DNA of 41,799 nt from a virus: the IMG/VR virus record IMGVR_UViG_3300031566_000123, one strand, 5' to 3'. Numbering within the stretch: the first letter of the stretch is position 1; every line of letters starts with the position of its first letter. Positions 5,560 to 40,925 of the stretch are shown piece by piece. The notes under the pieces are model-generated. The model worked only from the letters and a program-made list of their open reading frames with translations. It searched no databases and was not told where the DNA came from. Made by a program: the position numbers and the translations under genes.

Positions 5560-5905
5560 GGGGTAACATAAGCATATACCATAATAAGTTAATAGCGTGT
5601 AATTTAATATAGATTACATTACTAAAGATAGAGTGTTACATTAGTTTACATAATTACTGTATATCAGTATAAAATAGTGTAGATACTTATTACTATAATA
5701 TAATGTTAGCTATATTGAATTACACTCTAATTGACATAATGTTGTTGACATAACACTTGCTCTGAAAGGCCCAAATTATGAGCTATAATGACAATAGACT
5801 ATGATAAGCACTAACACGATATTTGACACGACGTAGTGTAGCCATGTGTGTGACTGGCATGGCATACGATGGCGTGATAAGGCATAGATTGACACGATGC
5901 CATAT
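5560..5905. promoter_or_regulatory. AT-rich non-coding region with multiple TTACAT / TTGACA(T/C) boxes (candidate origin or operator field)
   Basis: No ORF with a Shine-Dalgarno site. Visibly AT-rich from 5581 to 5760. Boxes lie near 5610, 5634, 5645 and 5719 (TTACA) and at 5731, 5745, 5823 and 5889 (TTGACA). Confidence 0.5.
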
Positions 5906-5934
5906 TTGACACAAGCCAGTGACTATGATATAAT
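5906..5934 (+). promoter_or_regulatory. Sigma70-type promoter, perfect consensus TTGACA-N17-TATAAT
   Basis: TTGACA at 5906-5911, a 17-nt spacer ending in TGA, TATAAT at 5929-5934. The predicted start near 5941 is about 40 nt upstream of the tRNA-like genes. Confidence 0.75.
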
Positions 5935-5981
5935 TGATACAAATGGACAAATTGGACAGAAGTTTAACAACCGAATAATGC

Positions 5982-6175
5982 TTGCCAGTGGCGGAATAGG
6001 TAGACGCTATGGCCAGGAACTAGAGGTAGGACAGGATAAAAAGTCCCCGTGACACCTGGTTGGGCTAACCACCCGTAAAACATACGGCAACAGACCAATA
6101 CCAGCGTGGTGGCTGTGAGGCAACTGATAAGCGGGTCAGCCTACTCATCTAGGGTGCAAATCCCTAGCTGGCAAT
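5982..6175 (+). ncRNA. tRNA-like gene 1 (about 193 nt) with acceptor, D-arm and T-arm but a roughly 110-nt internal insertion
   Basis: TTGCCAG (5982-5988) pairs with CTGGCAA (6168-6174). UG linker. D-arm GCGGAATAGGTAGACGC resembles type II tRNAs. T-arm CTAGGG-TGCAAAT-CCCTAG (6149-6167). No canonical anticodon arm found by eye. Confidence 0.55.
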
Positions 6176-6307
6176 GCTGGAGATGGCAGAAAGGTAAATG
6201 CTTGCAACGAGGTAGAGCCTCCCAAGTGGAGAGAAGGCCGATACCCACAAGGGGAAGGCGCTGTTGTAAAACTCTATCTACTAGGGTTCGAATCCCTAGC
6301 TCCAGCA
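6176..6307 (+). ncRNA. tRNA-like gene 2 (about 131 nt) with acceptor, D-arm and canonical T-arm but a roughly 50-nt internal insertion
   Basis: GCTGGAG (6176-6182) pairs with CTCCAGC (6300-6306). D-arm GGCA-GAAAGGTAAA-TGCT. T-arm CTAGGG-TTCGAAT-CCCTAG (6281-6299). Starts immediately after gene 1. Confidence 0.55.
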
Positions 6308-6312
6308 AAACA

Positions 6313-6393
6313 CCTAGCGAGGAAGTGATTGCGGATAATTGGTAACAAGCAGTTCTGCGGATACCAGCAGCCTCGCTAGGTCAATGTGTTGAC
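6313..6393 (+). promoter_or_regulatory. Long hairpin plus palindrome upstream of the RHH gene
   Basis: CCTAGCGAGG (6313-6322) is the exact reverse complement of CCTCGCTAGG (6371-6380). Its loop holds two TGCGGATA copies (6330-6337, 6356-6363). Palindrome GTCAA-TGTG-TTGAC lies at 6380-6393. Confidence 0.45.
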
Positions 6394-6416
6394 TACCCGA
6401 AAGGAGTAATTGTACC

Positions 6417-6614
6417 ATGCGTAGACATTTTATTGTGGAGTTGGACGACGCTGAGTTTGTGAGGTTGAAGGTGGCCGTTGTCATGGAGCAAACCACTATT
6501 AAATCCTGGCTCAGGTCGGTTATACTTAGTAATATAGATAATAAGGAGGATTATAATGATTTAGAATATGTAGTACAGACAAATGAAGGTACGCAAATAA
6601 TAAGACCAAATTAA
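6417..6614 (+). CDS. Ribbon-helix-helix (CopG/Arc-like) DNA-binding protein (65 aa)
   Basis: AAAGGAG precedes the ATG. The N-terminal RHFIVELDDAEFVRLKVAVVMEQTTIKSWLRSVIL fits a strand-helix-helix pattern. Confidence 0.5.
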   Translation: MRRHFIVELDDAEFVRLKVAVVMEQTTIKSWLRSVILSNIDNKEDYNDLEYVVQTNEGTQIIRPN

Positions 6615-23573: not shown

Positions 23574-23602
23574 AGATTAACATAATACTTTGAACTTGTC
23601 AA
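23574..23602 (-). promoter_or_regulatory. Internal late promoter TTGACA-N17-(TGT)TAATCT ahead of the scaffold and capsid genes
   Basis: Minus strand: TTGACA at 23602-23597 (contains the TGA stop of the 1898-aa gene), 17-nt spacer ending in TGT, TAATCT at 23579-23574. Confidence 0.45.
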
Positions 23603-26600
23603 GTAGCACGGCCAGCAGATGTCAAATTATCGTATATTAGCTGCGCTTCTGGCGTAAGTAAAGTGCTGGTCACATTCCAGTATAGCAGTTGCGCATCTAG
23701 TGTAGGGAGTGTCATACGGAGCTTTTTTCTGGCATTGGTTGTCATAGTGCGGTATTGGGAGATAAGTTTCAATCCGTTTGGTCTGGTTATCTCCTGTATC
23801 TCCGCTGCTCTGGTTGGGTCAATGTCTTGGATTGCGTAGTATTCATCAATGAGGTCTTGCTCCTCTGGGGTGAACATCTCTTTTTTAATCACATCGGAGA
23901 CATTCCAATACGGTACTAAGTAATTTTCCACTGCCTCTCGGTAGAGGGTTCTACCAGGAGTCTCATTGTGGCGGAGATAGGTATGCCAATCGGATTTAAG
24001 TTCTGGTGGGAGCATTTTCTCAATCGCATCCTGGGTTGCGAAGAATGTTCCCCAGTCTAGGTACGGGGTGTTTGTTACAGGGTCTATTTTCTCCTTCACG
24101 GTGAGCTGGAACCATTCGTTTAGCATTTCGTCAAATGCACCCATGTTGAGATTGATACCTTTCTCCGCATAGTAGAGCGCTCGTTCCTCAGCGGTGAGTG
24201 GTATCCAACTGAATTTATTTTTAGTTACTGGGTTTGCTTCCCATTCTCCAGTTGTGTGGTTGAATGTATCACCATGTTCCTCATGTATGTAGTCTGCGTT
24301 ATCCTTGCTTATGCCACGCATTTTATCCACATATTCGGCTTTACTTATCCATCCACCTTCACCTCTGAACGCCTGTCCTTCTATGCGGAGCATTTCTATA
24401 TTATTAGCCTCACGGTGTCGCCTAACCATGCCCCAGAATTCTGATTGGATGAGGTTATCCTCAATCTCGCTGGATGGGCGCAAGGATGCGGTGACTCTAG
24501 GTTTAATCCACCGCATGTATTCCTCCGCTTCTTGGATTTGCATTATGTCTAATTGGGATAAGCCAGGACAAACATCACCGACGGTATAACCGTGCATCCT
24601 GAGCCATTTTTGGGTTTTAACATTCACTCCAGTAATTTCCTCAATATACTCCCCCCACCATTCATAGGCTCGGATGCGGTCCTCATGTCGCATACGGAAT
24701 ACGCCAGCATGGGACATCCATGGTGACATAAGGGATACACGACCAACAGCATTATCCCAAAGTCCTTGCTCTTCTGCGGTAAGGGTTTCATTGCGCTCCA
24801 TTTTCTCCCAGATGGACACACCAGTAATCCCCCGCTGGATTTGGTCTGTGGTAGCTTTATCAGACACTTCGGTCATACGCATGTAATCCTGAAAATAATC
24901 AGGGAATAACACACCATAGAGTTTCTTGGCAACATCGGATTCGGGGTGAGCTGCTATAAATAAATCCAGCGGAGTTTTAACAATGGTCGGTAAAATTTGT
25001 CCAGTTTGTGGCTTTCTGCCGCCGTAGGATGTTAGGAGTAATTCCCAAAATACATTCGGAAAGAACCCCCACCGTTTAACATAATCCATGGTTTCTACAA
25101 ACTCGGGAAACATTTGGTCATAGTATTCTGGGTAGTCTCTGCGGACTAGGCTGGACATACCACCTTTATACACCGTGCCTCTGGTAAAGTTTACATCCAG
25201 CGAGGTACCAGGTATGTGGACATAACCAAAATCGGAATTATCCATAAACTTACCCCATGTATTCATGATTAGTGGATGGGTTGCAAAGTTTCTTGGTAGC
25301 CAGAACCATCGTTGGGATTCGTAGGTCCAGTAAGGAAATATATGTGTCATAAATTTATCTAGGATGTTGAGATTGGTATAGTCGGTAAATTCTTGGTGGT
25401 AGGAGAGCATAGTCTTATCCATTGCTTCTTGTTTTATCCGCCACCATTCATCAGTACCTTCTCTAGCAAGTTGTCCTTTAACTGGTTGGTAGATGTCCAG
25501 TTTGCGGAGATTGTCAGCTACCTCATCACAGTAACCTTGTATGTGCATTGCAGCTTCCTTATTCACGGAATGGTTAATACGGATTGATTCCAAATCTCTG
25601 GATAGGTTATCCATTTCGGCGTATTTGCGGGTAAGGATATCATGGACAGCAGGGTCAGAGCGTACTCCATATATTAGTTTGTCATATACCTCTCCAATGG
25701 CATCATCGGTGAATCCTAGTGCTTGACGGGTAGTTCCAGCAGCGGAAGCCATTTCAATAGATTGTCTCCTAACCAATGCTACAAAATACTCCTTACGCAT
25801 CAAGGATGCGGAGTTCATCATAGCATAGGATATTTGGTCACCTGTGGAGTGGAATAGTTTAGCAATATCAGCGGGGGTTAGTGCTCTCCCAGTTGCGTCA
25901 ATTTTTGCAGTACGGACTGATACTCCCATCACCCTGCCCAGCCCTCTAGCCGCAGAGATTTGGTCAGCAAGGAGTTCAGCGTCTATGGTGAAATGCTTTT
26001 CCCAAATTTCGGTAAGTTCTTTAATCCATTCAGGAGAGTTTGGTCTAACCTTGCGAGCTATGAGTTCCTCGGATTTTTTCATAGCAACTTTGCGGGTGTC
26101 TTGGATTTTGAGTACCCGTGCAACCGCAACATCCATGCAATTATCTAATTGTTCCACTTCAGTTTTGGTCAACAGGTCGCCAAGGTTAGCTTTGATATGG
26201 TCGGAAAGTCTTTTGGATTGTTTTTCACACTGGTTGAGGAATGGCATGATATTGGAGTACGCCTCCGCCCATGCGGTTTCCCTTGCAGCTGCGGTTGGTA
26301 ATGTAGATATTCGGTGTTGTGCACCTGTGAATAGGGAGGAGATAGTTTCAGGAGATTCCATGGATATATCTTGGAGAGCATGTGCATAACCCATAATCTG
26401 TTCTTTGGTTTCTATTTTGTTGGTGGAGGCTAGTAGGTCATCTACCAAATGCTGTAATCTGTCAGCTTTTATTCTCGGTGCATTGATAAGCCTATCTGCT
26501 AGGATATCTTGGGATTTAACCATGAAAGCAGGTAGGTCATCCCAAAGCTCACCCGTATAGGCGCCTTTGAGGAACACATCCCAAACCTCGGTTAGTTCCC

Positions 26601-29295
26601 CATATTTCATCACCGCTTTATTAACCTGGCCCATTTTTATGTTCCTTGCGGTGAACGCAGAAGGTACACTTTGGACTGCGGATGGTCCAACTAGGGAGGC
26701 ATCATGTACCATCTGGTGAATTCCTTTACCAATATCATCACCAATACCAATCGTGGGAGTAAACTTTGGAATGGATTTCTCAATGCCAACCATTGTTTTT
26801 GGAGCAAGGTCAGTGAGGTTATCCTGCCACACGGTTATACAATACCCATTTCGCTGGATGCCACCAGAAAGCTGGGAAGCATTTATTGGGAACAGCGCAG
26901 CATTGTGCACCTTGTTTCCGATTTTTGGTATCCACCCACCTGTTAGTGCTTTTTCCACCATTTCTACGCCGAATTCCCTCTCTGTTGTGGTAAGTGCTAC
27001 GGCGTGGGTCATTTCACCAATGCCTACTGGTTGTAAAGTTCCTCCAACCAATGCTTTACCAATATCACGGTAACCATACCTTGTAATGTTCAATGAACGG
27101 GCTAGTTCTGGGTCAACTCCGGACAACCCAATGAACATTACGTTAGCTCTAGCAGGAGTCACTCTACCATATACACCGCCACCACGACCACAGTAGGTAC
27201 GCAACACCTCTTCTACGTAGTTGTACGGGAAGTAGTTCCCAGTTAATAGGAATGCCCTAGCAAAAGGCATAACAAGGTGTTTTTCTATCCCCTCCTGCCA
27301 AATTCTACGGTAGATAGGTTCAATGGTATTTACCATTCCTGCCATAAATCCATGTCGCTGCTGCCACAACCACCATTTTTCATATCCCTCAGATAGGATA
27401 ATCTCCCTGCCATGTGCTTTCAAGGTTTGCAGGGATTCTAGTGGAGCTAGTTTTGCCATCTTTATACCTTCTGCAACGGTACGGTCATAGGTTGAGGTTA
27501 TCAAACCTTTAGCAATTTTCATATTGGTTTCATCATCTGCTATGTTAAATACATTCCTACAGAGGTCTTGCGCAGCAGCATCTAGGTTGCGTGAAATTCT
27601 TCCTGGTGCTGGAGACATTGAACCTGGTGTAATGGTACTAGCAACGATACTCTCCAAGTCCTGTATCATACCAGGAGTAATATCACTAGGGTCAAAGGTT
27701 TTCCCAAATGCTCTTCCCCATTCAATGAACTCGGTGTGGGTTAGCTGTTTACGAGCAATATAGGCTCTACCCAGCATTGCAGTTTCGTCCACCGCTGCTG
27801 GGTTGTCAACCGCATACCTAATGGCTTTTAGGTTAGCTTCCACAAAATCATCTGCTGGTATGTTTTCCAAAGCTTTGCCAGCAATCCTTTCTTGTGGCAT
27901 TTTAACCATGTCGGTTATTTGCCTACCAAAATAATCCGCTTTTTGTCCAGTGGTTTTGGGTATTCGCATAAGGAGTTTGGTTTTGACAAACCCAAATGGT
28001 GCTTCACAAAAACGGATGAACCCTCGTTCAAAGGCTCCAGATGCACCAAATATCCTGCCTAGGACTGGAATCCCCCTAGTAGCTTTTGCTCCCTGCATCA
28101 ACCAACCAAACCCAAGTACATTCACAGGGTCGGTGAATATCTCCAACCCCATCTTCGCCCATTCATTGCTTTCAAGGTCTTCCCATGCTTTTCCCATAGC
28201 AGTCCAATGGTTCATACCAGCTTCACGGTTTTTGTTGTAATCATTTCGCAATAAATCACCAGTCATATCTACTGCTTCCCTCAAAAGTTCTATCTCGTTA
28301 TCAGGATAAAACTGTGCAAACATGGAGTGTTGGAAATAGAATGGAAAACCATACATATGGTCTGCGGTAAATTGTGCTATCCACCCAGCTCTAGGTTGGT
28401 CCCAGTAGGTTTGGTATAGTTGTAATACATCCATCGCTGCGAGTGCTGGTTGGGAAGCAACAAATTTGAGTTTCCCCCAAAAGGTTCGCTCTGGGAGTTC
28501 TACCTCTCCACCAGCCTTATATTCCGCAATTTGTTGTCTACCAAGTTCAAATTCCTCAATCAAGGTTCCAAATTTACTATTAGCCGCTTCCGCTGCTGCT
28601 GCAAGTTCCTCATCCGTGTAACCTTCATCTTTTAGGTAATTAAGTAACTCTGGACCACCCAAACCTGGTGGTAACTCTGGCGGTGGCATGATTTGTCTCA
28701 ACCATTTGGACATTTCATCCACGGTTGTTAGATGCACGCCTTTGAAGGTTGGCTTGGTTGGTGCTGGAGTGGTTACAAACCATTTTGCCAATTCCGCCGC
28801 ATAGGCTTCATCGGTGGGAGCTACCTCACCAACTCCTAGAATAGTATTTACATAGTTTCTGGCTTTGGCAAGGTCCTCAGGTGAGCTATTAGGTTCTGGT
28901 GGATGTTGACGGATGTAATCCTCATAACTATTGATATTGGCAGCTTTGAGGTCCATGGGTGAGGCGGAGTATAGGTAGCCAAACCACACATTGCGGGTAT
29001 AATCTGATAATTGGATATCATACTCAGCTTTTGCTTTGGTAATATCCTCCACACGCCTAGTTGCTGGAGATGGAACCTGTAGTGGTAATTTTTCAACCTG
29101 AACCTGTGGAGCAAACGCCGTTAGTATATCCTGGCATAGACCATAAGATACCCCATATTTTAGCAAACTACTCCATGCCTTTTCCCATGTGGAAAGTGGT
29201 TCACCAAGGTCCTGTAGCTTCGCCTCACTCTCCCTGAGCAGTTTTTCAATGGAGGTTATTTCATCCTGCCATTTGGTTAACTCATTCCCGTTCAT
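23599..29295 (-). CDS. Giant 1898-aa protein of unknown function (candidate internal virion or ejection protein)
   Basis: Uninterrupted ORF. GGAGGTATGTAAT precedes the ATG. Lies between the portal and scaffold genes. I recognised no catalytic motif. Confidence 0.85.
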   Translation of the reverse strand: MNGNELTKWQDEITSIEKLLRESEAKLQDLGEPLSTWEKAWSSLLKYGVSYGLCQDILTAFAPQVQVEKLPLQVPSPATRRVEDITKAKAEYDIQLSDYTRNVWFGYLYSASPMDLKAANINSYEDYIRQHPPEPNSSPEDLAKARNYVNTILGVGEVAPTDEAYAAELAKWFVTTPAPTKPTFKGVHLTTVDEMSKWLRQIMPPPELPPGLGGPELLNYLKDEGYTDEELAAAAEAANSKFGTLIEEFELGRQQIAEYKAGGEVELPERTFWGKLKFVASQPALAAMDVLQLYQTYWDQPRAGWIAQFTADHMYGFPFYFQHSMFAQFYPDNEIELLREAVDMTGDLLRNDYNKNREAGMNHWTAMGKAWEDLESNEWAKMGLEIFTDPVNVLGFGWLMQGAKATRGIPVLGRIFGASGAFERGFIRFCEAPFGFVKTKLLMRIPKTTGQKADYFGRQITDMVKMPQERIAGKALENIPADDFVEANLKAIRYAVDNPAAVDETAMLGRAYIARKQLTHTEFIEWGRAFGKTFDPSDITPGMIQDLESIVASTITPGSMSPAPGRISRNLDAAAQDLCRNVFNIADDETNMKIAKGLITSTYDRTVAEGIKMAKLAPLESLQTLKAHGREIILSEGYEKWWLWQQRHGFMAGMVNTIEPIYRRIWQEGIEKHLVMPFARAFLLTGNYFPYNYVEEVLRTYCGRGGGVYGRVTPARANVMFIGLSGVDPELARSLNITRYGYRDIGKALVGGTLQPVGIGEMTHAVALTTTEREFGVEMVEKALTGGWIPKIGNKVHNAALFPINASQLSGGIQRNGYCITVWQDNLTDLAPKTMVGIEKSIPKFTPTIGIGDDIGKGIHQMVHDASLVGPSAVQSVPSAFTARNIKMGQVNKAVMKYGELTEVWDVFLKGAYTGELWDDLPAFMVKSQDILADRLINAPRIKADRLQHLVDDLLASTNKIETKEQIMGYAHALQDISMESPETISSLFTGAQHRISTLPTAAARETAWAEAYSNIMPFLNQCEKQSKRLSDHIKANLGDLLTKTEVEQLDNCMDVAVARVLKIQDTRKVAMKKSEELIARKVRPNSPEWIKELTEIWEKHFTIDAELLADQISAARGLGRVMGVSVRTAKIDATGRALTPADIAKLFHSTGDQISYAMMNSASLMRKEYFVALVRRQSIEMASAAGTTRQALGFTDDAIGEVYDKLIYGVRSDPAVHDILTRKYAEMDNLSRDLESIRINHSVNKEAAMHIQGYCDEVADNLRKLDIYQPVKGQLAREGTDEWWRIKQEAMDKTMLSYHQEFTDYTNLNILDKFMTHIFPYWTYESQRWFWLPRNFATHPLIMNTWGKFMDNSDFGYVHIPGTSLDVNFTRGTVYKGGMSSLVRRDYPEYYDQMFPEFVETMDYVKRWGFFPNVFWELLLTSYGGRKPQTGQILPTIVKTPLDLFIAAHPESDVAKKLYGVLFPDYFQDYMRMTEVSDKATTDQIQRGITGVSIWEKMERNETLTAEEQGLWDNAVGRVSLMSPWMSHAGVFRMRHEDRIRAYEWWGEYIEEITGVNVKTQKWLRMHGYTVGDVCPGLSQLDIMQIQEAEEYMRWIKPRVTASLRPSSEIEDNLIQSEFWGMVRRHREANNIEMLRIEGQAFRGEGGWISKAEYVDKMRGISKDNADYIHEEHGDTFNHTTGEWEANPVTKNKFSWIPLTAEERALYYAEKGINLNMGAFDEMLNEWFQLTVKEKIDPVTNTPYLDWGTFFATQDAIEKMLPPELKSDWHTYLRHNETPGRTLYREAVENYLVPYWNVSDVIKKEMFTPEEQDLIDEYYAIQDIDPTRAAEIQEITRPNGLKLISQYRTMTTNARKKLRMTLPTLDAQLLYWNVTSTLLTPEAQLIYDNLTSAGRAT

Positions 29296-29296
29296 A

Positions 29297-30973
29297 TTAC
29301 ATACCTCCTAGTTCTGGTGAAGGTGGTAACACTTCCTCGCTTGGTAACGCACCTCGTGGGGTACCAATTGGTCGTCCTGGTGAAGGTGCGGCTTCTGGTG
29401 AAGGCTGTGGTGTTATGGATGCTTCCAACATATCAGCAGCTTTGGTAAATAATGCTGCGGCTTGGTCGTCCTTAGCATCCTTGTATATCCTCGCCTGTTC
29501 TCGGTAGGTTTGTATCATAGCTAAGGTCTGGGCAATAGGATTGGTCAGCGCATCATCCTTAGCTGCAATAGCTTGTTCCCTCACAGGGTCAACAACTTCG
29601 GGGAATATAAGGTCACAAGTTGTGTTGAACCCAAGTTTGAAGGTTGGGTTTAGCATCCGAGCTATGGTAGCTCGTTGTACCAAACTCCCAGGGATGTTGA
29701 TATTAAAGTCTATGGTGAATTCGGTGAATTCTGGGAGTTTTTTGGGTGGCTTAAAGCCATAGGTATTCAACTTGCGCTCACGGAGTTCCACTAACCAGTA
29801 GTTATCCACATCTGCTAATACTCCTTTAATGGCATCGGCGTATGGGGTTAGTGTACCAAGTGCGGCAGAGGCTATCTGGGATACCATATACCCCGCCATT
29901 TCTTGCTGGATGTTACCATATAACACCCACGGAAAGGTGCAGCGTTGGATGCGGTTACCATAATCAAATAGTATGGTTCGCAGTTCTACTGGGATTGCTG
30001 GCATTGGTACGGTTTCAACACTATCCTCTGGTGTGCCTCGGAAAATCGCACCACGCTTAAATATGGTTTGTGGATTGAGTATACCTTTTGTGCTGCGGGA
30101 ACGCTCAAACCACCTTGGATTAGCCGTGTCTCGGACTAACTGTTGGATGTAGGTTAGCATTTTGTTGTGGTTGTTGAACTCCTCCGCACCCACAGCCACA
30201 ATACTCTCTCCGAAGTTTTTTTGCCAATCTTTGGAGGTTTGCTTAATAGCACCCATATCTGGTAGACCAGCAACAGGTGAGGTAAAAATCGGTATGCGGT
30301 CGGATTTCTGCTCCGTAATACTTAATGTGGTGAGAGGTTTCACCAACACATTCCCCATAACAATAGCATTAACCACTTCGCCGCTGGTACTGTAGGTCCA
30401 GTAGTTGTAGACCTTAACATCAGCGTTGAATGGTCGTGGTAGTACCCAGTTATTCCTTCTCGCTTTGCGGTTTGCTGCCGTTGGTGTGAGGGTGTAGATA
30501 TGAGCGCAGGATTCCAAACCATCGGAGCTAAAACTTGGATACACATTGGCTGGGTTCCAAACCTCCGCAATTAGTGTATCATCTGTAACCCAAGCAAATA
30601 CGGAATACCACCCTGTTGCAAGCACTAACCCAATCATTTCTCGGAGCCAGGACTGTCTACCAAGTCTGCGGTGCTGTTGTTCCAACCTGCCCCATTGGGT
30701 GGAGATATATTGTTCCAGGTATGAGGTGGAAGCAACTTCTTCTTGGCTTAAACCTTCAGTAGGTATTTTATGGGTCATGGTACTTGCAGTTAGCATGTTT
30801 AGTGCAAGGTTGTATGCGGTTCTCGGGTCACTGGATATTACCGATTCCATGTCCTCTTGGTGAAGGTTGTTAGTGAGTAATAGAAGGTCATACCAATCTT
30901 GGAATTGCTTTGCTCTGGTTGACCAGTTGGTTTTTAACTCATTACACACCTTCACAATGTCATTTGCTTTCAT
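29297..30973 (-). CDS. Portal protein (558 aa)
   Basis: Size and position shortly downstream of the large terminase. GGAGGTGATTT precedes the ATG. Confidence 0.7.
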   Translation of the reverse strand: MKANDIVKVCNELKTNWSTRAKQFQDWYDLLLLTNNLHQEDMESVISSDPRTAYNLALNMLTASTMTHKIPTEGLSQEEVASTSYLEQYISTQWGRLEQQHRRLGRQSWLREMIGLVLATGWYSVFAWVTDDTLIAEVWNPANVYPSFSSDGLESCAHIYTLTPTAANRKARRNNWVLPRPFNADVKVYNYWTYSTSGEVVNAIVMGNVLVKPLTTLSITEQKSDRIPIFTSPVAGLPDMGAIKQTSKDWQKNFGESIVAVGAEEFNNHNKMLTYIQQLVRDTANPRWFERSRSTKGILNPQTIFKRGAIFRGTPEDSVETVPMPAIPVELRTILFDYGNRIQRCTFPWVLYGNIQQEMAGYMVSQIASAALGTLTPYADAIKGVLADVDNYWLVELRERKLNTYGFKPPKKLPEFTEFTIDFNINIPGSLVQRATIARMLNPTFKLGFNTTCDLIFPEVVDPVREQAIAAKDDALTNPIAQTLAMIQTYREQARIYKDAKDDQAAALFTKAADMLEASITPQPSPEAAPSPGRPIGTPRGALPSEEVLPPSPELGGM

Positions 30974-37738: not shown

Positions 37739-37951
37739 TCACTTTTTACCTTCATGCTGTTTTACTAGCATATCCATTATACCTTCCAACTTTGCTACGT
37801 GGCGGGAAATGCCGTCTACCTTTGCAACCAACCCATCGTTAATAGTTTCATCCAGGTGTTGGACTTTTTGACTAACTTTACCATATACATAAACCCAGGT
37901 TATAATGTTTATTAGGACAAATACCCCAGCTCCGATTACATATTCCGACAC
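37739..37951 (-). CDS. Single-TM membrane protein with a coiled-coil tail (70 aa, GTG start)
   Basis: GGAGGTATTTA precedes the GTG. N-terminal segment VIGAGVFVLINIITWVYVY. Confidence 0.5.
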   Translation of the reverse strand: MSEYVIGAGVFVLINIITWVYVYGKVSQKVQHLDETINDGLVAKVDGISRHVAKLEGIMDMLVKQHEGKK

Positions 37952-38460
37952 TAAATACCTCCTCTGGTTATAATCATCTCCTCTTTCTCACGGCGGATTT
38001 CAAATACCATTTTGGTGAAATCAAACCCCGTTTGTGTTGCTTCTCCTACCAACTGCTGGATAATAGCATATTGTTGAGGAGTGTAGAAGGAACGGATTTT
38101 GAGTAGGTATTGGTTTTCCCTATCTGTTAATTTCTCAGGTTGTTGGACGCTTTTGGAGAGGACTTGGAAGTCCTTTTCCAACGCTAACCGAAAATTTCGG
38201 CTGAATTCAATGTTGAGGTACTCCGCACCGACATTTTTCTTGAGTTGCATGAGACCTGTGGTATCTAGGATGGCAAAGTCCTCATCCTCCTCACGCCACC
38301 TTTTGACGGTTCTTTCGGATATGCCAGCAAGGTTGATGGCTTCTCGGAGTGTAAAACCCACCGCACGGTAGCTTAGGTAGTTAGACTTCCTTGTGTTGTC
38401 TGGGTAGTAAGGAAGCATCCCTTCAACCGTCTGCGCCGTTTGTGGAACTAAATCATTCAT
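37951..38460 (-). CDS. HTH DNA-binding protein, first gene of the late operon (169 aa; possible small terminase or late regulator)
   Basis: YRAVGFTLREAINLAGISERTVKRWRE is an HTH-like segment. The ATG at 38460 lies 8 nt after the -10 box, so the mRNA looks leaderless. Confidence 0.5.
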   Translation of the reverse strand: MNDLVPQTAQTVEGMLPYYPDNTRKSNYLSYRAVGFTLREAINLAGISERTVKRWREEDEDFAILDTTGLMQLKKNVGAEYLNIEFSRNFRLALEKDFQVLSKSVQQPEKLTDRENQYLLKIRSFYTPQQYAIIQQLVGEATQTGFDFTKMVFEIRREKEEMIITRGGI

Positions 38461-40600: not shown

Positions 40601-40630
40601 AGTGTAGCATAGGGTAGAAACTTGTGTCAA
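40601..40630 (-). promoter_or_regulatory. Promoter TTGACA-N18-(TGC)TACACT for gene 40014-40544
   Basis: Minus strand: TTGACA at 40630-40625, an 18-nt spacer, TACACT at 40606-40601. Confidence 0.55.
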
Positions 40631-40764
40631 GTAGCAAAGTGACATAACACTCCAAAATTCGGCATCGGCGCAATTATACTGCTACTAAGCAACCTGCTTA
40701 TTGAAGGTAAGTGGGCCATTGGGTGCCTTTTGAAGCTAGAGCTAAAGGCACGGCGAATGGGAGT

Positions 40765-40802
40765 ATTATGTCAACTTCTTATGTCAAGTTGGATTATGTC
40801 AA
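40765..40802. promoter_or_regulatory. Three tandem (A/C)TTATGTCAA boxes between divergent promoters (candidate operators)
   Basis: Copies at 40765-40774, 40778-40787 and 40793-40802. None has a usable -10 box at 17-18 nt on the strand where it reads TTGACA. Confidence 0.5.
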
Positions 40803-40808
40803 GTAGGC

Positions 40809-40838
40809 TTGACAGCGTCAAACACTCTGTGTTATACT
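40809..40838 (+). promoter_or_regulatory. Early rightward promoter TTGACA-N18-(TGT)TATACT
   Basis: TTGACA at 40809-40814 and TATACT at 40833-40838, preceded by TGT. The predicted +1 at 40845 coincides with an ATG. Confidence 0.65.
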
Positions 40839-40844
40839 AGGTAT

Positions 40845-40925
40845 ATGTCAAACATAGAGCGCAAGGTTCTGCAACCTGAGGAGGACAATAGAGATGAAGG
40901 AATGAATATATTGTTAGAGGGTTAA
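40845..40925 (+). CDS. Possible leaderless mini-ORF (26 aa)
   Basis: The ATG sits exactly at the predicted +1 of the 40809 promoter, as at the two other leaderless starts. My translation: MSNIERKVLQPEEDNRDEGMNILLEG. Confidence 0.3.
   Translation: MSNIERKVLQPEEDNRDEGMNILLEG

Follow-up and report, generated by a model that had tools for sequence, protein, structure and literature searches.

Bacteriophage T4 encodes two small RNAs, species 1 (rnaC, 139 nucleotides [nt]) and species 2 (rnaD, 119 nt), within its cluster of transfer RNA (tRNA) genes and on the tRNA strand. Each exceeds a tRNA in length, lacks any anticodon function, and is annotated simply as "small, stable RNA"; to our knowledge, their function is still unknown. 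Here, we analyzed two adjacent tRNA-like genes, gene 1 and gene 2, at positions 5982 to 6307 of the IMG/VR virus record IMGVR_UViG_3300031566_000123. This phage genome of 41,799 nt (approximately 42 kb) is referred to as the window throughout, and coordinates without a locus name refer to the whole window. The two genes belong to a larger family of phage-encoded elements that has the listed features in common with the T4 RNAs, and rnaC resembles the family further in its final canonical T-arm (CCGGG-UUCGAAU-CCCGG), which abuts a short terminal helix. Unlike the family, however, rnaC is without a Leu-type D-arm, its terminal helix is weak, and its T-stem has 5 base pairs (bp); moreover, a hypervariable family around rnaC and rnaD is not known. 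Our covariance model of the family (R1, described below), run with filters off, gave 8.9 bits for rnaC (E = 0.5) and nothing for rnaD and so showed no homology; their sequences are not similar to the family either. Among known systems, rnaC and rnaD are the closest functional analogues of the family.

Bacterial type-II tRNA-Leu (RF00005) shares with the family the 7-bp acceptor, U8, G9, the D-arm GCGGAAU(U/A)GGUAGACGC, a T-arm that abuts the acceptor, the elbow bases, and a location in tRNA arrays. It is the evident ancestor of the family. The family differs from it in having no anticodon stem-loop, a 6-bp T-stem, G at position 55, a variable discriminator base, and a length of 66 to 355 nt (median 126 nt), with some inserts of only about 20 nt.

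Transfer-messenger RNA (tmRNA), the C4 and CI immunity RNAs, and YrlA RNA share an idea with the family, not an architecture. Like the family, tmRNA has its acceptor and T-arm at the ends of the molecule and a large non-tRNA body in place of the anticodon arm, and it does not decode alone. A D-stem is missing from tmRNA, in which an alanine identity pair and a pseudoknotted tag reading frame are present; family members, in contrast, have a D-stem and inserts as short as about 20 nt, and an ARAGORN search for tmRNA was negative in the window. The C4 RNAs of P1 and P7 and the CI RNA of P4 are phage antisense RNAs that RNase P processes from an operon leader via an acceptor-like helix, and their variable loops give lineage specificity. 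They are not cloverleaf homologues, and the inserts of the family, unlike these RNAs, have no excess complementarity to leaders or to the phage genome. The Rfam C4 model (RF01695) had no match in the window. In YrlA, the two RNA termini are located at a Ro-binding stem, which occupies the position of an anticodon arm, and a loop closes the "acceptor"; in the family, the termini are at the acceptor. YrlA is likewise non-decoding. Its tRNA-like module (Chen et al. 2014, PMC4201824) imitates the acceptor, T, and D portions of a tRNA with no anticodon arm. Some copies are phage-borne. No Rfam match to YrlA was found in the window, nor was a member of the Ro/Rsr or RtcB families found among the scanned window open reading frames (ORFs).

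The tRNA-like shell and the family that shares it

The two adjacent tRNA-like genes are real. They had been proposed in an earlier reading of this locus made from the sequence alone (hereafter, the sequence-only reading), and the sequence features it listed are all present where it placed them. In both genes, minimum free energy folds without constraints recover the acceptor, D, and T helices. The thermodynamic z-scores are weak on their own (-1.2 and -1.5 for the folds of genes 1 and 2), and it is the family comparison by covariance model, not fold energy, that raises the locus above a chance resemblance.

Searches that started from the locus itself yielded few relatives. No GenBank phage had a DNA match to the locus or to 25 kb of the window genome, and 14 metagenomic contigs carried an identical locus with no sequence variation. 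Scans of viral contigs with single proteins found nothing. Phages related through a neighboring 215-amino-acid (aa) protein are mostly without an element between the AAA_25 gene and the gene for that protein; among them, only L008 and L009 have a copy, which lies elsewhere in the replication module. The copy at L008:6586-6841 is a homologue of gene 1, with identical D-arm and T-arm. Its acceptor, TTGCTGG/CCAGCA, shows compensatory changes compared to TTGCCAG/CTGGCAA in the window, and its insert measures approximately 210 nt, compared to approximately 140 nt in gene 1.

Exact scans with the T-arm revealed a far larger set. The 17-nt T-arm TAGGGTGCAAATCCCTA was present in at least 120 IMG/VR viral contigs, and a 21-nt version with a C-G outer pair was present in at least 119 metagenome contigs. 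In 185,579 representative genomes, the 17-nt T-arm occurred at 44 loci, about 20 of which are members of the family (bacterial or candidate phyla radiation [CPR]). In nearly all loci, "UG GCGGAAUAGGUAGAC" stands 60 to 330 nt upstream of the T-arm. We anchored a pairing test on the D-arm motif and the T-arm only, so pairing was not selected for. When the 7 nt before the "UG" were compared with the 7 nt after the T-arm, a mean of 6.4 of the 7 positions formed Watson-Crick pairs in register, whereas the same comparison slid by 1 to 3 nt gave means of 1.4 to 2.9 pairs. Among 108 distinct elements, there were 61 distinct acceptor pairs.

We built R1 from the shell alone, using copies from other phages, and the model recovered approximately 100 full-length members in each collection. 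In a model alignment of 95 sequences, 98.9% of pair cells were paired, compared to 37 to 49% in slid controls, and compensatory double changes were found in 14 of the 16 pairs; none of 500 shuffles reached the observed values. T-stems covary in unseeded copies as well (UGAGG/CCUCA and UGAGA/UCUCA). Because the sixth T-stem pair covaries (CG in 53, GC in 38, and AU in 2 of the 95 sequences), the 7 + 6 = 13-bp stack is a selected trait. The sequence-only reading had suggested looking for covariation in relatives, and the pairings of the acceptor, D, and T helices are indeed conserved there with compensatory changes, which places all three helices of both loci under selection. Within the window, R1 gave 61 bits for gene 1 (E = 1.3e-13) and 31 bits for gene 2 (E = 6.8e-6). 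We rejected a third match, at 37848-37957 on the minus strand (18.9 bits), as a false positive inside an ORF and without a T-arm.

Outside the helices, the family keeps U8, G9, A14, A15, G18, G19, A21, U48 (the U just before the T-stem), U54, C56, and A58, and these conserved unpaired bases are those that build the core and elbow of a tRNA. The 7-bp acceptor is kept, the T-stem has 6 bp, and position 55 is usually G, although seeding with the exact UGCAAAU T-arm, by which most members were fetched, inflates how often G55 and the 7/6 layout are seen. The 6 + 7 bp stack that had been pointed out in the window is a family trait and not a peculiarity of this locus, and the same is probably true of G55.

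The two genes stand at different distances from the family consensus. By the family D-arm test (U8 and G9, then GCGGAAUAGGUAGACGC), gene 1 is exact, and its D-arm and linker are as first described. The same description needed refinement for gene 2, whose sequence here, A-UG-GCAGAAAGGUAAAUGC, diverges by an added base and by a compensatory change in the D-stem. Its D-stem is GCA/UGC compared to the consensus GCG/CGC, a compensatory replacement of G-C by A-U, and we placed this stem at 6186-6188/6199-6201 because comparison with L270 and L298 shows that an extra base, A6183, precedes U8 and G9. The acceptor of gene 2 is identical to those of L270 and L298, which are clear members. Its T-loop, UUCGAAU, is shared by a minority of members including L029, L050, and L196, whereas gene 1 has UGCAAAU, the frequency of which is biased by the search. 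With R1, real phage tRNA-Leu genes score 35 to 39 bits; because the 31 bits of gene 2 fall within reach of real tRNA-Leu, its membership depends on additional features. Gene 2 is placed in the family because of its 6-bp T-stem, its missing anticodon arm, and the acceptor it shares with L270 and L298, and we treat it as a divergent paralogue.

The interior in place of the anticodon arm

Neither gene is recognizable as a conventional tRNA. At default stringency, ARAGORN detected no tRNA or tmRNA in the window and no tRNA in any of 81 family members, with or without introns allowed. Under relaxed settings, it returned 7 hits with 7 different anticodons, and it forced gene 2 into a tRNA-Thr(GGU) with A33 and a 47-nt intron at a non-canonical site. 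Searching the window against Rfam 15 gave nothing at the gathering score and only noise at E <= 10; when ten other loci were included, at gathering and relaxed E-value thresholds, the only matches were real tRNAs and ROOL RNA nearby. A single family member reaches the Rfam tRNA threshold (RF00005), and this model had no hit in the window, even at E <= 10. Both window genes have the 7-bp acceptor with abutting T-arm of a canonical tRNA, though the T-stem has 6 bp, and their lengths of 194 and 132 nt compare with approximately 70 to 95 nt for a tRNA. A 5-bp anticodon stem with a 7-nt loop (U33, purine at position 37) is absent from both, and no stem after the D-arm is conserved across the family. 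Hence, the absence of an anticodon arm, reported by the sequence-only reading, holds for both genes, and neither ARAGORN nor Rfam revealed an ordinary uninterrupted tRNA in another register.

The region from the D-arm to U48 cannot be aligned across the family. All-against-all BLAST resolved 177 unique sequences into 130 insert clusters, and among Lactiplantibacillus phages, a single identical shell (GTGCTTG/CAAGCAC) surrounds at least 10 unrelated inserts. The insert of gene 1 was a singleton in this clustering. A metagenomic fragment, L281, shares the core of it (approximately 6049-6107), with 92% identity over 37 nt including the hairpin GGG-CUAACCA-CCC (6062-6074); the acceptor of L281 differs, and gene 2 is absent there. 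A helix resembling an anticodon stem and closing the insert was only marginally enriched (5.2 versus 4.7 bp). Inserts and phage genomes shared no complementary stretch of >=12 nt, and complementarity between an insert and the 200 nt of its own downstream leader showed no excess over a cross-locus control (6.44 versus 6.54).

T-arm-like hairpins occur inside several inserts. Two members, L079:2079-2297 and L031:12212-12458 (minus strand), have an extra structured insertion of 50 to 110 nt inside the D-loop, flanked by repeated AAUAG; in L031, this insertion holds two T-arm-like hairpins. We also observed a 122-nt phage type-II tRNA-like gene with a Ser/Tyr-type D-arm and an oversized interior (L278:638-759), and a gene of 183 nt (L194:12277-12459) in which an apparent anticodon arm (loop GUUAUGA) is followed by approximately 115 nt at the position of the variable arm.

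A probable non-decoding tRNA mimic and its rivals

Both genes probably belong to one large phage family that arose from a type-II (Leu-like) tRNA and encodes stable, non-decoding tRNA mimics. Because the insert, which varies freely in length, sequence, and fold, replaces the anticodon and variable arms, the RNA cannot read a codon. In the mechanism we propose, the consensus promoter upstream would drive a single transcript comprising a leader of approximately 40 nt, genes 1 and 2, a hairpin, and the mRNA of the replication module; this layout is read directly from the window, and we infer its expression. Each unit would then fold into the L-shaped top half of a tRNA, with helices given by covariation and a three-dimensional shape suggested by the tertiary-contact bases. 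Host RNase P would be expected to cut on the 5' side of each acceptor, and because gene 2 follows gene 1 without a spacer, cleavage at gene 2 would generate the 3' end of gene 1 as well. RNase Z or exonucleases, together with the CCA-adding enzyme, may finish the 3' ends. The resulting stable mimics would display a lineage-specific domain in the position of the anticodon arm.

The sequence-only reading had offered tRNA-mimic decoys and processing signals among its explanations; of these, we favor a mimic with a role in trans because of the tRNA-array context and the copies that have their own promoter and terminator. Two cultured, virulent Lactobacillus phages, Satyr and LP65, have the element within a tRNA array and in the same orientation as the tRNAs. 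The Satyr copy has no annotation; the LP65 copy, which is 217 nt long and sits between two tRNA-Arg genes (L340:2820-3036, AY682195 at approximately 53.7-54.0 kb), is overlapped by the annotated "orf80." In two Lactobacillus phage or prophage contigs (L065 and L017), the element follows ROOL RNA and tRNAs. Strong promoter-like sites within 80 nt upstream were detected for 11 of 160 elements, compared to 7 of 800 control positions, and terminator-like sites within 120 nt downstream for 25 of 160 elements, compared to 15 of 800 control positions. One copy (L139) begins 5 nt after a perfect promoter and is followed at 28 nt by a terminator. Taken with the tRNA-array context, this enrichment indirectly supports a putative discrete, stable, processed RNA.

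The role of such a mimic is a matter of speculation. It could be a decoy or sponge for a host factor that binds the tRNA body, or a scaffold that stabilizes a fast-evolving cargo RNA, which are suggested because the shell is invariant, the acceptor is specific to host groups, and the interior is scrambled. Departures from elongator tRNAs such as the 13-bp stack and G55 might, to speculate from general knowledge of tRNA-Sec and EF-Tu, exclude the RNA from translation. An arms race over the tRNA body would have a precedent: the variable loop of type-II tRNA-Tyr is cleaved by the defense systems Septu and retron-Eco7, to which phages respond with a tRNA-Tyr of their own (PMC13096335). A more specific version of the mimic is conceivable, though we consider it doubtful: a natural, processing-competent, nuclease-resistant tRNA scaffold, used by phages of many bacterial phyla, that displays a rapidly diversifying domain as a decoy or sponge against immune factors binding or cutting tRNA bodies. 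Its targets, named here tentatively, could be nucleases that act on type-II variable arms, for example Septu/PtuAB and retron-Eco7, and the 13-bp stack and G55 would, in this equally doubtful version, prevent contact of the mimic with EF-Tu and with the ribosome. If this version were true, the family would represent a new RNA-based class of phage counter-defense.

Several results weigh against a stable mimic that acts in trans. The discriminator is not conserved (A in 93 members, T in 32, G in 30, and C in 21) and CCA is encoded in no member, leaving nothing to mark a defined 3' end. An antisense cargo is unsupported, as the inserts lack excess complementarity both to the phage genome and to the 200 nt that follow. 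Pfam, PHROGs, and NCBIfam gave no RNA-handling enzyme among the scanned window ORFs, and no partner protein co-occurs with the element. Most members were fetched with the exact UGCAAAU T-arm, and the sampling is biased in this respect. Finally, in the window and its sediment relatives, the element lies in an operon leader together with further conserved hairpins, a setting that a cis role fits equally well.

Processing or punctuation in cis is the main rival, albeit one that we regard as unlikely. In this explanation, the units do no more than recruit RNase P and RNase Z, trimming the leader or separating mRNAs, the latter like the tRNAs in mitochondrial transcripts; a protective hairpin would then stand at the start of the downstream message, and the RNA that is cut out would serve no purpose. 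The position of the window units fits: a strong promoter precedes them, and a hairpin with a 10-bp closing stem follows them ahead of the first ribosome-binding site. So do a GCCAGCUAC...UAGCUGGC hairpin in 14 of the 26 elements that have a downstream motif, several of which continue with a GGUGGGG hairpin and a ribosome-binding site, and the temperate L. plantarum phages, in which the element heads the late operon. An insert free to vary would also be expected if the shell alone matters. However, many copies lie in tRNA arrays or stand alone with their own promoter and terminator, where they have no gene to serve. An acceptor/T minihelix suffices for RNase P, so the near-invariant D-arm, G55, and 6-bp T-stem would be unexplained, as would the stacking of two or three different units.

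The mimic might instead be aminoacylated, which we judge quite improbable. The CCA-added RNA would be charged by leucyl-tRNA synthetase (LeuRS), an enzyme that does not read the anticodon, and would serve as an amino-acid donor, a LeuRS sink, or a means of tmRNA-like entry into the ribosome. Several features are compatible with charging: the D-arm is nearly identical to that of bacterial tRNA-Leu, the bases of the tertiary core are conserved, the discriminator is A in all copies from L. plantarum phages, and Larkin and colleagues reportedly found in 2002 that the E. coli LeuRS charges a minimal tRNA-Leu without anticodon and variable arms. Among unique members as a whole, though, the discriminator is A in only about half; it is G, C, or T in 53 of 77 members of the metagenome clade and T in gene 1. 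With its 13-bp acceptor/T stack and G55, the family is unlike every elongator tRNA; a tag-like ORF is absent, and the ARAGORN tmRNA search was negative. Leucylation as a general property is argued against by the variable discriminator and by the lack of an encoded CCA.

The sequence-only reading had described both genes as split by an insertion and had raised a new class of small intron or ribozyme. Under that explanation, a self-splicing or enzyme-removed intron would be spliced out to give a working tRNA, an outcome that we consider highly improbable and have rejected. It draws on the tRNA-like outer shell, on the relaxed ARAGORN fit of gene 2 as tRNA-Thr(GGU), and on some inserts of 200 to 260 nt, the size of small group I introns. 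Against it, ARAGORN at default stringency was negative with introns permitted and the relaxed anticodons are inconsistent with one another; members of 76 to 84 nt are too short to hold an intron; no exon sequence of an anticodon arm is conserved beside the insert, even among identical shells; and no group I intron or small ribozyme was matched in Rfam in the window and ten other loci. Scarcely credible, too, are decaying tRNA-Leu pseudogenes, a chance resemblance, or a DNA site (attachment or recombination) with tRNA fragments: although tRNA 3' halves are frequent in phage attP sites and a few truncated copies (e.g., L096 and L123) are without a D-arm, the two halves are always in register with compensatory changes in all three helices, the element is present in the strictly virulent LP65 and Satyr, and a near-invariant shell around a scrambled interior is the opposite of neutral decay.

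Whichever role it has, this is apparently a new, undescribed, cross-phylum family of phage noncoding RNA. We found no description of it in the literature, including by search with literal signature sequences, and no model in Rfam 15, and 31 GenBank phage records leave it unannotated. In general terms, tRNA-like candidates are mentioned in a catalogue of 10,006 viral candidate RNAs from 2023 (PMC10690425), which may include the family without a name. If it is as undescribed as these searches suggest, it is among the more abundant unannotated structured RNAs of phages, with hundreds of copies, hosts ranging from Lactobacillus to CPR bacteria, and a frequent position beside tRNAs and ROOL RNA. 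Its loci are currently mis-annotated as ORFs (e.g., LP65 orf80) or left blank. The combination of a shell that is near-constant to the nucleotide across phyla and an interior that differs in nearly every phage is rare, and it suggests that the tRNA elbow is read by a universal host partner or else that a molecular arms race is at work. The family also bears on the 50-year-old question of what the T4 species 1 and 2 RNAs are for. Because cultured L. plantarum phages (Sha1, phiJL-1, ATCC 8014-B2, and LP65) carry the element, direct testing is possible.

Distribution of the family and layout of the window

According to genome records, hosts of the family include Lactobacillaceae, Clostridia, Paenibacillus, Acidobacteria, Zixibacteria, and several Patescibacteria; no copy was found in E. 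coli genomes. Several phages have 2 or 3 copies, some in tandem as in the window. In the temperate L. plantarum phages Sha1 and H1-Guo, the element lies between the RinA/DUF1492 late activator and HNH/terS. A deep-sea Tenericutes isolate is the reported source of OP650937.1 ("Hujiaoplasma phage zrk29-2"), in which an element at 37992-38115 is 98% identical to the L. plantarum-prophage type; this copy could reflect horizontal transfer or a misattributed host. The ROOL RNAs (Rfam RF03087) noted above are at L065:6358-6930 (139 bits) and L017:2067-2606 on the minus strand (123 bits), giving clusters of three kinds of RNA gene. The LP65 record and ARAGORN place the tRNAs of the array on opposite strands.

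Directly downstream of 26 elements, mostly of the sediment/groundwater clade, is a conserved motif, and in 14 of the 26, a second RNA motif can be delimited. It consists of an 8-bp stem, GCCAGCUA/UAGCUGGC, around a variable stretch of 30 to 160 nt that often opens with CCC-GAAA-GGG. The hairpin GCCAGCUAC...UAGCUGGC, which can also be given as GCCAGCUAC...CUACUAGCUGGC, is analogous to 6313-6380 and 6393-6404 in the window. Several of these motifs are followed by a GGUGGGG...CCCCACC hairpin and a ribosome-binding site. The closing stem has a few compensatory changes; as in the element itself, the shell is conserved and the inside is variable, and there was no Rfam match.

The window encodes a family-A DNA polymerase, a major head protein, a terminase, and tail proteins. 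Features of the locus are listed in Table 1. The promoter ahead of both genes, which the sequence-only reading had called a perfect consensus, matches at 12 of 12 positions and also has an extended -10 TG at 5926-5927. A TTAA[AC]AA core of the leader motif just 5' of gene 1 is found within 40 nt upstream of 24 of 83 elements in the sediment/groundwater clade. We rejected this motif as a general phage-specific promoter because the window has only one exact copy. Gene 2 begins directly after the discriminator of gene 1. The 3' half of the long hairpin downstream is kept in L006 with a T-to-C change.

Table 1. Features of the tRNA-like locus in the window, with examples of the downstream motif at other loci
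Feature	Position	Strand	Details
Sigma-70 promoter	5906..5934	+	-35 TTGACA 5906-5911, 17-nt spacer, -10 TATAAT 5929-5934
Leader motif TTAACAACCGAATA	5964..5977	+	Just 5' of gene 1
tRNA-like RNA gene 1	5982..6175	+	194 nt including discriminator
Gene 1 acceptor TTGCCAG/CTGGCAA	5982-5988/6168-6174	+	7 bp, 7/7 paired
Gene 1 U8 G9	5989-5990	+	From sequence
Gene 1 Leu-type D-arm GCGGAATAGGTAGACGC	5991-6007	+	From sequence
Gene 1 hypervariable insert	6008-6148	+	Approximately 140 nt, at the place of the anticodon and variable arms
Gene 1 T-arm CTAGGG-TGCAAAT-CCCTAG	6149-6167	+	6-bp stem, UGCAAAU loop
Gene 1 discriminator	T6175	+	From sequence
tRNA-like RNA gene 2	6176..6307	+	132 nt including discriminator
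Gene 2 acceptor GCTGGAG/CTCCAGC	6176-6182/6300-6306	+	7 bp, 7/7 paired
Gene 2 extra A, then U8 G9	A6183; 6184-6185	+	From comparison with same-acceptor members
Gene 2 D-arm region GGCAGAAAGGTAAATGCT	6185-6202	+	D-stem 6186-6188/6199-6201
Gene 2 insert	6202-6280	+	Approximately 80 nt
Gene 2 T-arm CTAGGG-TTCGAAT-CCCTAG	6281-6299	+	6-bp stem, canonical UUCGAAU loop
Gene 2 discriminator	A6307	+	From sequence
Long hairpin, 10-bp closing stem CCTAGCGAGG/CCTCGCTAGG	6313..6380	+	Between gene 2 and first ORF; fold z = -2.7
CUACCCGAAAGG motif	6393-6404	+	Overlaps ribosome-binding site AAAGGAG 6400-6406
65-aa ORF, ATG 6417-6419	6417-6614	+	First gene of operon
Downstream motif, examples	L100:1881-1987(-), L287:1910-1985(-), L302:428-499(-), L238:875-964, L268:623-728

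The operon headed by the 65-aa ORF includes exonuclease-like, AAA_24, methyltransferase, and DNA polymerase genes. By eye, the 65-aa product (MRRHFIVELDDAEFVRLKVAV...) resembles a ribbon-helix-helix regulator; it had no match to Pfam, PHROGs, or NCBIfam models. In the structural region, a 1898-aa ORF (23599-29295, minus strand) is without a PHROGs or NCBIfam match, and so is the adjoining 558-aa ORF (29297-30973, minus strand). TTGACAY boxes number 25 in the window, compared to 14.8 expected. Five of them fall within approximately 180 nt at 5731-5912 (plus strand), upstream of the tRNA-like genes, and another five within approximately 230 nt at 40624-40851 (minus strand), near the other end of the genome; these clusters could be stacked promoters or repeated operator sites.

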